A stretch of DNA of 64,000 nucleotides, taken from a virus. Taxonomy: Duplodnaviria; Caudoviricetes. Position numbers and translations under genes: made by a program. A model generated the notes under the pieces. It was not told where the DNA came from, ran no database searches, and saw nothing but the letters and a program-made list of their open reading frames with translations. Location of the stretch: positions 1 to 64,000 of the IMG/VR virus record IMGVR_UViG_2974795854_000001, one strand, 5' to 3'. Positions 37,768 through 58,167 of the stretch are shown in pieces; position 1 is the stretch's first letter, and each line of letters starts with the position of its first letter.

Positions 37768-37801
37768 AAAAACAGGTATCCACTATCAAAAACAGGACGA
37801 A

Positions 37802-38221
37802 ATGAACCAACAAGAATTAAGAGAGAGAAAACTACAGATACTAGACGAAACTGTAAAGTATTACTCCGAGGACTTAAGTAGAAGGGCGCTCGACGAAAAC
37901 TTCATGTGTATGTACAAGACTCCCGAGGGTAAGATGTGCGCTGTAGGTAGATGTATGAGAGATGACGCACCATTTAAAGACCTTAATACACAAGGTGAAT
38001 TACTCTCTTTAGAGATAATCCGTGATGTAGAATTTAAAAAGCAAGATAAGAAGTTAGACACCCTCTTAAAGGATAAGTACAAGGGTGTAAACATAGAGTT
38101 TTGGATGACCCTGCAAAGTTTGCATGACCAAAGCCTTAATTGGGAAAGTGGAGGACTTTCGGAAATGGGAGAGGTAGAGTTAAATAGAATTAAATCAGAT
38201 ATAGAAAAAGGAGAGTTATGA
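37802..38221 (+). CDS. hypothetical protein, paralog family A copy 1
   Basis: YYSEDLSRR...C.YK...KMCAVGRCM; likely start MNQQ at 37802. Confidence 0.75.
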   Translation: MNQQELRERKLQILDETVKYYSEDLSRRALDENFMCMYKTPEGKMCAVGRCMRDDAPFKDLNTQGELLSLEIIRDVEFKKQDKKLDTLLKDKYKGVNIEFWMTLQSLHDQSLNWESGGLSEMGEVELNRIKSDIEKGEL

Positions 38222-38511
38222 GAAGAGTTAAAAGGTTATCGTTAATATTAGTACTGACGTTAGTATTTGTGACAATAGTTGCATCTGCACAAGAAAGTAC
38301 AGAGCCTACCTATGTGGTACAAGGTGACAAAATAGTAAAAGTAGGAGGTGGTAAATCTGCATCCGAAGGAACAAAGACCAAATACACCATGGATGTAAAA
38401 GGTGTTGAGTACCCTGTGTATAAAAGTACTAGGGGTAGCTACTATATTCTTAGGACTAGTAAGAAGTCTGGAAAAGAGTATAAGCAATATATAAAAATAA
38501 CTGGCCTATAA
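38218..38511 (+). CDS. small exported protein
   Basis: Signal peptide ending ASA|QES; VYKSTRGSYY. Confidence 0.65.
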   Translation: MRRVKRLSLILVLTLVFVTIVASAQESTEPTYVVQGDKIVKVGGGKSASEGTKTKYTMDVKGVEYPVYKSTRGSYYILRTSKKSGKEYKQYIKITGL

Positions 38512-38548
38512 AAGAAGACCTATTCACTATCCAAAACCTAGGGAAATT

Positions 38549-38953
38549 ATGATTAAGAGACAACTGATAGAAATGGCAATATACTCTATATCTTCCGTAG
38601 CCTTTGCTATAGAAGAGCTGGAATCAAAATTGCAGGACTGGAAGAGACGTAATATTGCAGAAGGAAACGATGAACCTAGGCTGTACCCAAGGCGTTGCGA
38701 CGTAACAGGAGAGGGTATGGATAAGGGTTACCTATTCCATGACACAATGTACATAAAGTATCTATCTGACGCCAAAAAAATGGCTAAAGAGAATGGGTAC
38801 GACTCTCTTCAAGATAGCTATGACAGCGGTTTCCATTATTGGACAGAGTGGGAGCAAGAGGCCTACGACGGTGGGAGTGCATATGACATTATGGGTAAGT
38901 TGTACCTCTTCAAAGTTAAACGTAGAGGTGAAGGTGATTGGGTAAAACAATAA
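38549..38953 (+). CDS. hypothetical protein
   Basis: 134 aa; RRCDVTGEGMDKGY. Confidence 0.65.
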   Translation: MIKRQLIEMAIYSISSVAFAIEELESKLQDWKRRNIAEGNDEPRLYPRRCDVTGEGMDKGYLFHDTMYIKYLSDAKKMAKENGYDSLQDSYDSGFHYWTEWEQEAYDGGSAYDIMGKLYLFKVKRRGEGDWVKQ

Positions 38954-38960
38954 GTACAAA

Positions 38961-39032
38961 GCTCTTTTCGTCTAGCGGTAAGGACATTCGGTTTTCATCC
39001 GAAAAACATAGGTTCGAATCCTATAGAGAGTA
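38961..39032 (+). tRNA. tRNA-Glu(TTC), copy A
   Basis: TTCGG-TTTTCAT-CCGAA; ATAGG-TTCGAAT-CCTAT. Confidence 0.88.
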
Positions 39033-39052
39033 CTAATATTAAAATTTAAGAG

Positions 39053-55643: not shown

Positions 55644-56156
55644 ATGCAAGATACTTATAAAAGGATTTACAAAATGGCAGAATCAGAGCTGCAAAAAAAG
55701 CCGTTTGATTTTGGTGACCATTTAGCCTATATTTATAAGGGCTTCAAAATATCAAAGAGAAATAGTGGGGAATACACTTGGAAGGATGTCAGATTTAGTG
55801 ACTACTACGACGAAGTAGACCCCAAGATTACGGAGAATGTTTTAAGACTAGGTTTTGTAAAGACTTTACTAATGGTTATGGTTCATAATGACCAAGATAA
55901 GCTTACCAGTATAAACAGACAAATAATAACTATTGATACAGAGATTAATTATTGGACAGCACAAGCCACCTTAGCGTATTCAAATATGAAAAAGGGGAGC
56001 CAGAAGCCTAAGTCTAACACAGACAAGCTTCTTAAATCATACGAAAAGTCTAAGAAACTGTATGAGAAGAAAAGAAGACTGCTTAAAGAAAGTAAAGAGT
56101 CTTTAAGGTCAGACTTCGAGTATTACGAAAACAGAATAAAATCATATAACAATTAA
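55644..56156 (+). CDS. hypothetical protein
   Basis: 170 aa with C-terminal coiled coil. Confidence 0.65.
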   Translation: MQDTYKRIYKMAESELQKKPFDFGDHLAYIYKGFKISKRNSGEYTWKDVRFSDYYDEVDPKITENVLRLGFVKTLLMVMVHNDQDKLTSINRQIITIDTEINYWTAQATLAYSNMKKGSQKPKSNTDKLLKSYEKSKKLYEKKRRLLKESKESLRSDFEYYENRIKSYNN

Positions 56157-56168
56157 ATTCAATTAAAT

Positions 56169-56909
56169 ATGGCGATTAACACAAGGGGAGCAGGAGCTTC
56201 AAACACGACTTACGTAGGAGTTTACGCAAGCGAATTAGTATTAGAGAACACCGATGAGGCGAAGTTAACCTCAAAGTTAGAATCTCTAGGCCTTAATCCG
56301 GAGGATATTCTTGAAAGAAAGAAGACTAAAGGTAAGAACGAAGGTCAGGTAGTATATTACTACATTTTAAGAAACTTAGAGGCTAAGATTACCGGAGTTT
56401 CAATCAACGAAGCTGATTGGGGTGATATGGTAGAAGTTAGCATGGCTGACGTAGATGACAAGTATGTTATCTCGCTTGGAGATGTGTTCAGTAGAACATC
56501 TAAGGATTTTATTAGAAGAATCGGTAATTTAGATTTAACCAAAGAAGTAGATTTTGGTCTGTGGAACATGACTGCAGAAGAGACTGGGAAGTCTTCTAGA
56601 AGCGGTGTAAAAATGTATCAAGATGATGAGAAGGTAGATTACTTCCTTACTTATGACGATATGCCTGAGCCAGTCCAAAAGAAAAAAGGACGTCTTACAG
56701 AGTGGGATTACTCAGAGCAAGAAACTTTCATCTATGACCACTTAGTTGACTTCATCAAGGAAAACTTTAAAGATGGCGCACCTTCTGAGGATGCAAGTGG
56801 AGAAGACTCTGCTCCTAAAGAGGAAGTAAAGGCTAAGCCTGAGCGTAAGAAGAGAGCTAAGGCCTCTGACGCTAAAGAGGATAAACCAAAGAGTAACAAA
56901 CCATTCTAA
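56169..56909 (+). CDS. putative single-stranded DNA-binding protein
   Basis: Beta-rich core and a disordered tail ending in PF; located in the replication module. Confidence 0.5.
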   Translation: MAINTRGAGASNTTYVGVYASELVLENTDEAKLTSKLESLGLNPEDILERKKTKGKNEGQVVYYYILRNLEAKITGVSINEADWGDMVEVSMADVDDKYVISLGDVFSRTSKDFIRRIGNLDLTKEVDFGLWNMTAEETGKSSRSGVKMYQDDEKVDYFLTYDDMPEPVQKKKGRLTEWDYSEQETFIYDHLVDFIKENFKDGAPSEDASGEDSAPKEEVKAKPERKKRAKASDAKEDKPKSNKPF

Positions 56910-56917
56910 GAATATAG

Positions 56918-57649
56918 ATGGTACCAATAGGTAAATTATGGGCGGATGCGTATTTTTCTACGTTGTCTGCCCATTCTAAACTCTTGTATATTTACTTAGC
57001 GACCCAACCTCAAATAAGCACTCTAGGAGTGTTGGTATTGAGAGACGAGTCTTTAAATACAGACTTAAACATAGGGATTACTGGGAAAGTTGAAATAGAA
57101 GAGAGTATAGAAGAATTAAAAGAGAGTGGGTATTTAGTTCATTTCAAAGATGGTTTATTTAACGTTTTTATAATAAAAGAACATTTCTTATCGCTATCTA
57201 AATCAAAACTTAACATCCGTAAGGCTATAGAAGAGGGGAAGGCCTCTCGATATAGGGATGAACTATTAGAGATCTACACAGAAGATGACTTCAAGCCACC
57301 ATTAGCGTTTACACCTCCAACACCTGAGGAAGCTACACAACACGCATTGGAAAAAGGCTACATAGTAAACGGAAAAACTTTCGTTGACTACTACGCCAGT
57401 AATGACTGGTATAATAAAAATAATAAGAAAATAAGAAGTTGGAAACTCACACTAGAAAAAGTATGGTGTCGAGAAGAAAACAAGCTAGAGGCCGTAGACG
57501 GTGCTCCTAAAGGATATGAATATTTCTTCATAACCACGGACGATGGTACTAGAGTTTCTCCAAAAGGTTGGAGGGATGGTATACCTACGCATAGTAATTA
57601 TATCATGGCTGAGCTTCTTAGAAGAGAGTTTGAAAAATCAAAAAAGTAA
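56918..57649 (+). CDS. replication initiator/replisome-organiser-like protein
   Basis: N-terminal wHTH (KLLYIYL) and FTPPTPEE...FVDYYASNDW...IRSWK. Confidence 0.55.
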   Translation: MVPIGKLWADAYFSTLSAHSKLLYIYLATQPQISTLGVLVLRDESLNTDLNIGITGKVEIEESIEELKESGYLVHFKDGLFNVFIIKEHFLSLSKSKLNIRKAIEEGKASRYRDELLEIYTEDDFKPPLAFTPPTPEEATQHALEKGYIVNGKTFVDYYASNDWYNKNNKKIRSWKLTLEKVWCREENKLEAVDGAPKGYEYFFITTDDGTRVSPKGWRDGIPTHSNYIMAELLRREFEKSKK

Positions 57650-57651
57650 CT

Positions 57652-58140
57652 ATGAAGTTTTACATAAAAGAAGATTGCGGAGATAGGTATTTAGGCGAGA
57701 ACGGAGTGTTTTTACCAACCAAAGAAGGGGCAAATATCTACGAATCAAAAGACGTATATAAAGTAATGTCTGACTTAAGTGCCCCTGTGTCAGCATATCC
57801 TGTTAACTACTTAGATCCTAGTGACGTGAGCTTAAGTGACCTTTCCACTCTGTATCCGGAAGACTCGAAGTGCTTAATATACTACCCCCTTTCGGGGGCT
57901 TTTTATAGAGAGCCTTGTGGAGGAGTTACACAAAACCCTGAGTCAGCCCACAAGTATGACCTTAAAGGGGTTGAGAATTTCTCGGGGTCAGGTATGTGGT
58001 TTATCCCATGCCACGACCCTGTTGAAGAATTATTCATATACTCCGAAAGATTTAAGGGGTTCTTAAAGTTAGACCCCTCTAGCCCAATTGTACAGGAGTC
58101 TGAATTAATCGGGAGAGAGGGTATATCAATTGTTCTATAA
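57652..58140 (+). CDS. hypothetical protein, paralog family C copy 1
   Basis: MKFYIK...FLKLDPSSP.VQE.ELIGREGISIVL. Confidence 0.7.
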   Translation: MKFYIKEDCGDRYLGENGVFLPTKEGANIYESKDVYKVMSDLSAPVSAYPVNYLDPSDVSLSDLSTLYPEDSKCLIYYPLSGAFYREPCGGVTQNPESAHKYDLKGVENFSGSGMWFIPCHDPVEELFIYSERFKGFLKLDPSSPIVQESELIGREGISIVL

Positions 58141-58167
58141 TAAGTAACACTATCAAAAAAAATAACT

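Follow-up and report, generated by a model that had tools for sequence, protein, structure and literature searches.

The 11-nt word AACACTATCAA is a real control signal, oriented with transcription, at the junctions of 10 to 13 early genes in a 72,979-bp phage genome that is a 92-96% relative of the marine Cellulophaga phage phi38:1. It very probably acts as a control word on the sense strand, with a reader particular to the phi38:1 lineage (Callevirus). We tentatively favour, as possible rather than probable, the reading that it is an mRNA-level, start-associated element which controls the accessory gene just downstream. To our knowledge, phi38:1 is among the few laboratory models for marine Bacteroidetes viruses, and little is known of how Bacteroidetes phages control gene expression. 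Translation in Bacteroidetes starts without Shine-Dalgarno pairing. The signal is apparently unreported so far; the time-course transcriptome paper on phi38:1 mentions neither 'promoter' nor 'motif' (PMC5335546). A sharply defined, conserved and lineage-specific word ahead of a third of the early genes is a concrete handle, and host, phage and strand-specific RNA-seq data are already available.

A search of the window, that is, the whole 64,000-nt stretch of DNA analysed, returned ten exact copies of AACACTATCAA, all on the plus strand between 39.5 and 58.2 kb and each at a gene junction (Table 1), and the whole genome holds the same ten forward copies and no reverse copy. The initial annotation had likewise counted ten perfect 11-mers, all on the plus strand, with several variants, and had estimated fewer than one chance copy per 64 kb; indeed, shuffled sequences gave a mean of 0.05 copies, and ten were reached in 0 of 100 trials. 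Allowing up to one mismatch yielded 14 matches against 1.8 expected. As counts at two mismatches drop to background (15 on the plus and 25 on the minus strand), the word is sharply defined. In k-mer counts it is the top complex 9- to 12-mer genome-wide, tRNA T-arms aside. Conservation extends over a block of some 12-14 nt, (A)AACACTATCAA(A)(A), and the 30 nt to each side of it hold no further conserved box. Since non-coding sequence makes up just about 8.6% of the early region, the placement at junctions is not a matter of chance. Copy number, strand and junction placement are thus directly observed.

Three junction variants, defined as one or two letters off AACACTATCAA, bring the total to 13 junction sites. 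The first of them, at 37779, corresponds to the start of 37781 given originally. The function of the in-ORF copy at 49661 is doubtful because such copies number at chance level. The motif had been described as confined to the early region, with none in the late module. No exact copy lies in the late module, and the description nearly holds: 12 of the 13 junction sites precede the strong host-type promoter at 55616, while the copy at 58146 lies beyond it, in the replication operon ahead of an accessory paralogue.

Table 1. The word, its variants and neighbouring elements in the window.
Feature	Position	Strand	Context
Two host-type promoters, TATATTTG at 35822 and TACATTTG at 36060	35822..36067	+	open the early region
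Strong intrinsic terminator	37251..37282	+	directly after first early gene (36723-37208); 5' of every motif site
Junction variant TCCACTATCAA	37779..37789	+	11 nt past a stop; ATG 37802 12 nt on; 11/11 letters kept in phi38:1
Junction variant TTCACTATCCA	38523..38533	+	11 nt past a stop; ATG 38549 15 nt on
Exact motif	39543..39553	+	flanked by paralogues 39053-39541 and 39558-39983; 1 nt past stop, ATG 4 nt on
Exact motif	40418..40428	+	overlaps TAA of 40128-40418; ATG of 271-aa gene 20 nt on; 11/11 letters kept in phi38:1
Exact motif	41358..41368	+	in 150-nt non-coding gap; 13 nt 5' of hairpin; next ATG 137 nt away
12-bp hairpin	41382-41411		after motif 41358; z = -2.9
tRNA-Glu B	41414-41486		after hairpin 41382-41411
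Junction variant AATACTATCAA	42386..42396	+	ATG 42408 11 nt on
Exact motif	42657..42667	+	immediately 3' of stop of 42408-42656; ATG of 54-aa ORF 1 nt on
Exact motif	44551..44561	+	overlaps TAA of 43925-44551; next start a TTG at 53 nt or an ATG at 80 nt
Imperfect palindrome/hairpin	44569-44595		after motif 44551; z = -2.8
Exact motif	45688..45698	+	2 nt past stop of M20/M42-like peptidase gene; ATG of 441-aa ORFan 19 nt on
Exact motif	47317..47327	+	last A is the A of ATG of 56-aa ORF 47327-47497; within overlapping end of 47068-47340
One-mismatch copy	49661..49671	+	within RtcB ORF
Exact motif	50870..50880	+	3 nt past RtcB stop; ATG of 245-aa ORFan 1 nt on (2 nt in phi38:1)
One-mismatch copy AACACTATCAC	52323..52333	+	in 3' part of 51807-52430
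Exact motif	55193..55203	+	overlaps TAA of phosphatase gene; ATG of 124-aa ORFan 11 nt on
Consensus host-type promoter, TTTG ... TATATTTG	55592..55623	+	before 55644; opens replication block
Exact motif	58146..58156	+	between 162-aa paralogues 57652-58140 and 58168-58656; only copy 3' of promoter 55616

The geometry of the sites agrees with the original description of copies at the upstream stop and close to the next ATG. Nine of the ten exact copies begin -1 to +5 nt relative to the upstream stop, and the next ATG follows within 0-20 nt in eight, the exceptions being 44551 and 41358; the latter is the copy noted earlier ahead of tRNA-Glu B. Across all junction sites an ATG lies 0-20 nt downstream in 11 of 13, and the word-to-start distances are 0, 1, 1, 4, 11, 11, 11, 12, 15, 19, 20, 53/80 and 137 nt.

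The word is under strong purifying selection. At the 12 sites common with phi38:1, 132 of 132 motif letters are identical compared to 438 of 480 in the flanks (p = 4.6e-5), and the word is unchanged in both cultured relatives, phi38:1 and phi40:1. Other Cellulophaga phages lack it, as do relatives whose proteins are 35-67% identical, and its reader is therefore probably lineage-specific. Selection and lineage restriction are, like the lack of promoter partners described below, matters of direct observation. All three sites that can be compared with relatives at 59-67% identity precede lineage-specific genes, and the conserved genes lack the word: the genes downstream of 50870 and 55193 have no homologue in the TARA relative, and both paralogues flanking 58146 are missing in three relatives (L211, L212 and L092).

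We then considered how such a word might be read. Our RNA evidence consists of assembled contigs of SOLiD RNA-seq, and the promoter at 55616 is evident in them: contigs of at least six runs end just upstream, and depth is about 10-fold higher downstream. Intergenic TAnnTTTG boxes on the motif strand occur only at 35822, 36060 and 55607/55616, and no motif copy with up to three mismatches in sense orientation lies at the promoters 35822, 36060 or 55616. The host Bacteroidetes sigma-A promoter (TAnnTTTG, with TTTG about 20 nt upstream) was rejected as an identity for the word, since its box is found neither within it nor at a fixed distance from it; this agrees with the initial annotation, which had also rightly set aside a Shine-Dalgarno sequence, the word having no G.

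An initiator-type promoter for delayed-early genes would place transcription starts within the word or at its 3' end, so that the mRNAs would be leaderless or have short leaders, and would be read by an unrecognised phage RNA polymerase or by a factor re-programming the host enzyme. This seems to us unlikely, although the first early gene ends at the strong terminator, so that transcription of later genes requires read-through or further promoters, one site stands ahead of a tRNA gene, and one RNA contig begins within a motif copy, the phi38:1 homologue of that at 47317. It also counts for a promoter that exact class-specific intergenic words in lytic phages mostly are promoters (T7, N4, phiKZ, T4 late). 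As in those of T7/SP6, N4 RNAP II and phiKZ/AR9, the words here are exact, oriented and intergenic, belong to one temporal class and need no -35 partner; the core ACACTAT, as a lead only, is similar to positions -8 to -2 of SP6/K11-type promoters. However, phages with such class-specific promoters encode the polymerase, whereas here no RNA polymerase (T7-like, multisubunit or crAss-type) or sigma factor was found in the scanned proteins or the precomputed Pfam sets, and no PF00940-type single-subunit enzyme matched in the scanned proteins or precomputed Pfam of the early and middle region. The 1691-aa virion protein lacks a DxDxD motif, and a search for the R-x3-K-x6,7-YG motif picked out just the DNA polymerase and one peptidase-like ORF. 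Moreover, the conserved block, at just 12-14 bp and without a second box, is shorter than in those promoters; the ATG is at most 4 nt from the word at four sites, too close for the host enzyme to use it as a -10/-7-type element; and one of about 35 mapped RNA contig starts falls in a motif (0.2 expected), while contigs of at least six runs break at the true promoter 55616. The role as a phage polymerase or sigma promoter that had been proposed is weakened accordingly. Distinctly unlikely, too, is a promoter that spans the initiation site of a machine no profile recognises, whether a new phage polymerase or a small phage protein through which the polymerase of the Bacteroidetes host would initiate at one 11-bp element and give leaderless early mRNAs.

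In the mRNA-level, start-associated reading that we prefer, the early region would be transcribed as a long polycistronic RNA from the host-type promoters at 35.8 and 36.1 kb, and the word would act after transcription start, on that RNA. For each accessory early gene concerned, it would form the 5' border of the region where translation initiates, and there a phage protein, or possibly an RNA, may bind it and set the translation level of the downstream gene, with either an early boost or a later shut-off as the outcome. We infer, rather than show, that the reader acts on RNA, that its effect is on translation and that it is phage-encoded. The reading is favoured by the strong selection on the word, the lack of a second promoter box, the lack of a polymerase or sigma factor in our searches, and RNA contigs that cross the sites; these span six of seven motif sites examined, in at least six runs each. 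Initiation regions in Bacteroidetes, being independent of Shine-Dalgarno pairing, are expected to be G-free and A-rich, and an initiation-region reading is favoured because AACACTATCAA is without any G and its flanks are A-rich. In gaps of only 12-16 nt the usual A/T-rich leader is replaced by the word itself, and the sequence 3' of the word is unstructured at the 11 ATG-proximal sites. Since the word precedes lineage-specific genes and not the conserved ones, gene-by-gene control fits better than a polar operon effect.

Several observations nevertheless argue against a start-associated element. The copies at 41358, followed by a hairpin and a tRNA, and at 44551, with a hairpin between word and start, are far from starts. 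Spacing to the ATG is variable and differs by 1 nt from phi38:1 at two sites (45688 and 50870). Predicted accessibility of the word (0.61) is no higher than that of other start regions (0.65), and its best duplex with E. coli 16S rRNA is at shuffle level. No RegA or RegB homologue matched in Pfam or PHROG, and no RNA-binding protein was identified as a candidate reader. Known translational operators, the RegA sites of T4 among them, are degenerate, and the exactness of this word speaks against one; the T4 RegB site is the 4-mer GGAG within the Shine-Dalgarno sequence. The proposed logic nonetheless resembles that of T4 RegA, and of RegB: a phage-encoded reader that would retune early expression by acting solely on early mRNAs, at the initiation region or beside it. 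The difference is that here the word is an exact 11-mer and no homologue is detectable.

The layout, in turn, resembles the start-associated sequences (SAS) of Cluster K mycobacteriophages, an asymmetric word of about 13 bp present in many copies, with a Shine-Dalgarno core able to pair with the 3' end of 16S rRNA and a spacing of 3-7 bp to the start codon (Pope et al. 2011, PMC3203893). Both words are asymmetric and about 13 bp long, lie almost all in one orientation in the non-structural half of the genome, just upstream of starts and often overlapping the upstream stop, and are absent from other phages; the reader of neither is known. In contrast to SAS, the word described here is G-free, belongs to a phage of a Shine-Dalgarno-independent host, and has a distance to the start that ranges over 0-20 nt, with two sites at 53-137 nt, instead of a fixed 3-7 bp. 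It is also not accompanied by ESAS-like inverted repeats, and the phage is a lytic podovirus of Bacteroidetes.

A cut at the word would leave the stop codon with the upstream ORF and the leader with the downstream ORF. Such an endoribonuclease site between cistrons of the polycistronic early RNA, RegB-like or of a punctuation type alongside the tRNA-like elements, is rather unlikely and ranks after the initiator-type promoter. It would explain why the word stays -1 to +5 nt from the stop in nine sites, long gaps included. Five tRNA-like punctuation elements already occur in the early region: the tmRNA, two tRNA-Glu, one mimic of a tRNA ahead of rtcB, and a tRNA-like element at 54370-54443. A single long RNA contig spans exactly the interval between the tmRNA 3' end and the mimic, and RtcB, an RNA ligase, is among the phage's own proteins. 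Contigs of at least five runs end 2-16 nt beyond the copy at 41358, but the adjacent hairpin and tRNA explain these ends equally well; at 44551, contigs from three runs break at the palindrome that follows. Contigs bridging six of seven sites imply that cleavage would be partial at best, and the searches revealed no nuclease family, RegB-like or otherwise.

Stoperators of Cluster A mycobacteriophages (L5 gp71, TipsytheTRex repressor; PMC9283540) share the asymmetric 11-13-mer, the many copies, the short intergenic gaps and an orientation locked to transcription. A comparable DNA site, at which a monomeric phage DNA-binding protein would block the host polymerase in one orientation for early shut-off, would leave the distance to the ATG unconstrained, allow a site before a tRNA, and confine sites to the class that needs switching off. 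The 178-aa ORF at 47882-48418 has a sub-threshold DnaA-C HTH match, but its predicted structure (pLDDT 45) does not confirm this lead, and no repressor family was detected. In temperate stoperator phages the site doubles as the operator of the early lytic promoter and is bound by a cognate immunity repressor (HTH plus stoperator domain). Here none of the three host-type promoters, including those opening the early region, is overlapped by a copy, and the sites keep to the early region, whereas stoperators occur all along the genome. Lysogeny is lacking, phi38:1 being lytic and non-integrating (PMC5335546). The sites accompany accessory genes and not operon starts, and RNA contigs read through them. 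A polar roadblock would be poorly tolerated at 58146, since that copy sits inside the replication operon, which it would block. We therefore regard a stoperator-like site as quite improbable. The Bacteroidetes word would all the same join SAS and stoperators as oriented junction motifs, so far studied mainly in mycobacteriophages.

None of the four roles proposed in the initial annotation is proven, and that of a recombination tag is not supported at short range. As mainly a tag, the word would provide microhomology at cassette borders for swap, duplication and loss of accessory early genes, in the manner of the PeSLs of T4-type phages, which combine a sigma70-like promoter with a terminator stem-loop and mark where close relatives have actually crossed over (Arbiol et al. 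2010, PMC2839356). Like PeSLs, the word is a repeated element between ORFan-rich early genes and tied to variable gene content: at long range, the three comparable sites all adjoin genes missing in relatives, tandem paralogues flank the copies at 39543 and 58146, and the phage encodes a serine recombinase. It differs in having no promoter boxes and a hairpin after only two of the 13 sites. The suggested check for breakpoints at the motif found none of three colinearity breaks with phi38:1 at a motif-bearing gene junction; the break at 52127-52403 does hold the in-ORF variant at 52323, an identity island inside a segment diverged from phi38:1. The single gene gain or loss relative to phi38:1 recombined within the paralogues' coding sequence; phi38:1 lacks the 39543 site and has a single hybrid gene there. 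No motif-to-motif joints appeared in four RNA runs, 11 bases are short for homologous exchange, and exact conservation of all 11 letters with strict orientation points to a reader. A mere tag is hence the least probable of these readings.

Elsewhere in the window, CACTATCA 8-mers on the plus strand of the late module lie antisense inside late ORFs, without the flanks. In an unrelated viral contig (L108), whose leaders are generally AACAC/ACAAA-rich, the same 15 letters abut two ATGs, which favours the start-associated reading.

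The 11-letter sequence AACACTATCAA, hereafter the word, is a real, selected and lineage-specific regulatory word of the early region. Ten exact copies were found between 39543 and 58156, all on the plus strand, where shuffled sequences gave 0.05, and no further copy occurs on either strand of the whole 72,979-bp virus record, whose first 64 kb make up the window. The initial annotation, which had reported ten perfect plus-strand 11-mers and none in the late module, was therefore right on both counts. Allowing one mismatch adds only four copies to the ten exact ones (1.8 hits expected in all) and two mismatches bring the count to background level on both strands, so the word is sharply defined. 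Indeed, k-mer counts rank it as the most over-represented complex 9- to 12-mer genome-wide. The conserved block around it spans 12-14 nt and is A-rich at its edges; no other conserved box turned up within 30 nt.

The minus strand carries the late and structural genes along with 18 tRNA genes, running from ~34 kb to position 1 and on round to the end of the record, and early and replication genes occupy the plus strand from 36.7 to 70.1 kb. Although non-coding sequence makes up just 8.6% of the early region, all ten exact copies are placed at gene junctions, with variants at others (see table). Nine exact copies start -1 to +5 nt relative to the upstream stop, which bears out the earlier observation that most overlap or follow it. 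The distance of 0-22 nt to the next ATG that had been claimed describes 11 of the 13 junction sites (0-20 nt) and breaks down at 41358 and 44551 (sites are named by their start coordinates), where a significant hairpin lies 8-13 nt 3' of the word (z about -2.9). Site 41358 is the copy already noticed ahead of tRNA-Glu B, with the hairpin in between. Two word sites separate tandem paralogues.

Window coordinates of features discussed in the text
Feature	Position	Strand	Remark
1691-aa structural protein	2235 to 1, wrapping to 70139	-	downstream of 1324-aa gene
1324-aa virion protein	4970-8944	-	
251-aa serine recombinase	28931-29686	-	
Tandem repeat based on CTGCCACCCTGTCATA	35470-35525		upstream of paired units
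Paired ~70-nt units	35760-36070	+	
First early gene	36723-37208		
Strong intrinsic terminator	37251-37282	+	12-bp stem, T-run
Junction variants of the word	37779, 38523, 42386	+	three further gene junctions
Tandem paralogues	39053-39983		
tmRNA	42950-43311	+	Rfam RF00023, 86.6 bits
tRNA-like element	54370-54443	+	unannotated
Full TTTG-N-TAnnTTTG match	55592-55623	+	
Stretch skipped in RNA contigs	about 56900-56970		L011:17431-17502
309-aa protein	60743-61672	+	

The cultured Cellulophaga phages phi38:1 and phi40:1 (Pervagoviridae, Callevirus) are 92-96% identical to the window along its length; phi38:1 carries nine exact copies of the word and phi40:1 the identical set, both on the homologous strand. 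Across the 12 junction sites shared with phi38:1, 132/132 word letters are identical, while the neighbouring 20-30 nt match at 438/480 positions (Fisher p = 4.6e-5). Variant copies are kept in variant form, the letters flanking the word do vary, and at two sites the distance to the ATG has shifted by a single base. Judged from this comparison of sequences, the word is under selection. It was not found in Cellulophaga phages phi14:2 and phi17:2 or Maribacter phage Panino, nor in TARA and IMG/VR relatives with 59-67% primase identity, and a 63-kb relative at 35-62% identity holds neither the word nor a comparable over-represented one. Searches with RtcB and primase returned nothing but phi38:1 itself and relatives at 35-67% identity, in which the word and any analogous over-represented word are absent; an exact 14-mer scan of IMG/VR gave mostly single chance hits among the matches listed. 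Its absence from other Cellulophaga phages and relatives means that the word is not a general host signal exploited by Cellulophaga phages, and its reader is probably encoded by the phi38:1 lineage. Flavobacteriaceae were absent from the matches returned by a phage GroEL search of genome contigs, and no notable pairing was seen with E. coli 16S rRNA. An unrelated viral contig (IMGVR_UViG_3300044845_000374, 15.7 kb) carries AAAACACTATCAAAATGGAAACGC twice on its reverse strand (2690 and 3433), each at a gene start; AACAC/ACAAA-rich leaders precede most of its genes, and the double copy could reflect local duplication or a common style of leader.

The initial annotation had listed a promoter among the possible roles. 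In its host-type or sigma-appropriation form this is excluded, as there is no second box and four sites abut the ATG. Intergenic plus-strand TAnnTTTG sequences (host-type -7 boxes) are confined to the head of the early region (35822 and 36060) and to 55607/55616, and the word overlaps none of them. RNA contigs from phi38:1-infected cells end just 5' of the 55616 box in at least six runs and depth is about ten-fold higher downstream, so this box is an active promoter and probably serves the middle (replication) gene class described in the phi38:1 transcriptome study (PMC5335546); that paper mentions neither promoters nor motifs. Twelve of the 13 word sites lie upstream of this promoter, and 58146 alone lies downstream. 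An initiator-type promoter, which would need a reading machine that escapes every profile, is unlikely though next in our ranking. No RNA polymerase, sigma factor, NusG, RegA or RegB was found when ~36 proteins were scanned with Pfam and PHROG and precomputed Pfam matches were consulted for all called genes from 37 to 66 kb. The scans returned RtcB, a metallophosphatase, a PRTase, a peptidase-like protein, Prim-Pol, a dATP/dGTP diphosphohydrolase domain, DNA polymerase A, DUF1064 and an RNase H-like exonuclease. In the ESM Atlas a 441-aa ORF matched only unnamed viral clusters and the first early gene matched nothing. A 178-aa early ORF, whose sole homologue is in phi40:1, gave a sub-threshold DnaA-C helix-turn-helix hit, and its AF2 single-sequence model was unusable (pLDDT 45).

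A virion RNA polymerase was considered and rejected: the 1691-aa protein has neither a DxDxD motif nor a Pfam hit, and the 1324-aa protein is a homologue of the crAss muzzle (PF25729, E = 9e-18, and PF25731), so this Pervagoviridae podovirus has a tail module in common with Crassvirales. At the head of the early region, a ~70-nt unit occurs twice, ...CCGATTTTTAGGTAGTTC(A/G)TCG..., then TATATTTG or TACATTTG; by sequence the pair look like strong host-type early promoters. About 650 nt free of ORFs separate them from the first gene. The terminator stands directly 3' of that gene and the next ORF begins 8 nt past it, which implies read-through control or antitermination for the remaining early region.

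The RNA data are phi38:1 SOLiD RNA-seq as assembled contigs with a single depth figure per contig, from which expression steps are not readable. Contigs bridge the word sites in almost every run; therefore the word is neither a strong terminator nor cut to completion. An RNA-processing site would account for the left-justified position after stop codons and be consistent with the RNA-centred gene set, but we regard this role as distinctly unlikely. Contig ends cluster at tRNA-like elements, the 55616 promoter and two intra-ORF places, not at the word, with two exceptions. A single one of ~35 mapped contig starts falls inside it (0.2 expected), and five or more contigs end 2-16 nt 3' of the 41358 copy, which the adjacent hairpin and tRNA explain equally well. 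One long contig begins where the tmRNA ends (3') and extends to the tRNA-like element 5' of rtcB, which fits processing at tRNA-like elements. A loose contig end at L011:6246 (in coordinates homologous to the window) has no match in the phage. The word was unremarkable in its predicted RNA accessibility.

In layout the word comes closest to the start-associated sequences of Cluster K mycobacteriophages (PMC3203893) and to Cluster A stoperators (PMC9283540), and for the cassette idea the closest system is the PeSLs (PMC2839356). The word lacks at least one defining trait of each family and so belongs to none of them. The layout would suit a stoperator-like roadblock, but no copy serves as an operator at a promoter, the phage is lytic and one site lies within the replication operon; we give this reading little credence. 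Likenesses to the IHF consensus, the DnaA box and the AR9 AACA-N6-TW promoter were judged coincidental, as was that to the Hin/Gin half-site TTATC(A/C)AAAACC, since the phage recombinase has no Hin-type HTH. This serine recombinase joins a resolvase catalytic domain to a fragment of the large-serine-recombinase 'Recombinase' domain, and is too short for a typical integrase.

The word had also been proposed as a recombination tag at cassette borders. In the RtcB-to-primase interval, the only stretch alignable gene by gene with a relative, all three word sites precede genes missing in the relative, and conserved genes are without the word. This long-range association with variable genes fits a tag, but none of the short-range breakpoints relative to phi38:1 falls at a motif-bearing gene junction, RNA contigs show no motif-to-motif joints, and a tag would not need 11 exact letters. 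We consider a tag the least probable of the roles weighed. The tandem paralogues are represented in phi38:1 by a single hybrid gene, whose N-terminus is that of the first paralogue and whose remainder comes from the second; from the sequences, this is a deletion or duplication through recombination inside shared coding sequence.

We tentatively rank first an mRNA-level, start-associated control element, as most copies lie close enough to a start codon for the ribosome to reach them and the word, G-free like the SD-independent leaders of Bacteroidetes, takes the leader's place in tight junctions. Such an element would act on the mRNA near the start codon, controlling accessory genes one by one, and the link of the word to individual accessory genes suggests gene-by-gene control. 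The main objections are the start-distal sites 41358 and 44551 and the exactness of the word. A literature string search for the word returned nothing relevant; the new elements are the phylum of the host, a G-free context independent of SD pairing and a tractable model system.

Several further features of the region were observed. In RNA contigs of three runs the SOLiD adaptor directly follows the homologous tmRNA 3' end (L011:3846), where depth is 25-100x that of the neighbours, so the tmRNA is abundant with a defined mature 3' end. The tRNA-like element, called by neither ARAGORN nor Rfam, sits in a 104-nt gap 5' of the phosphatase gene; it has a GGAGG/CCUCC acceptor-type stem and a T-arm-like CCGGUUCAACUCCGG, and ends ...GCCUCCA followed by CTAATAAT, as also follows the tmRNA. 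In contigs of two runs (depth ~700), 70 nt lying between two copies of CCATTCTAA are skipped, so that 56169-56909 loses its stop and 56918-57649 its start; the cause could be a jump during reverse transcription, a deletion variant or a genuine joint in the RNA. Finally, the 309-aa protein has a weakly NT5C-like C-terminal part and an N-terminal dATP/dGTP diphosphohydrolase domain (PF18909, E = 2e-29), which occurs in phages that remodel nucleotide pools.
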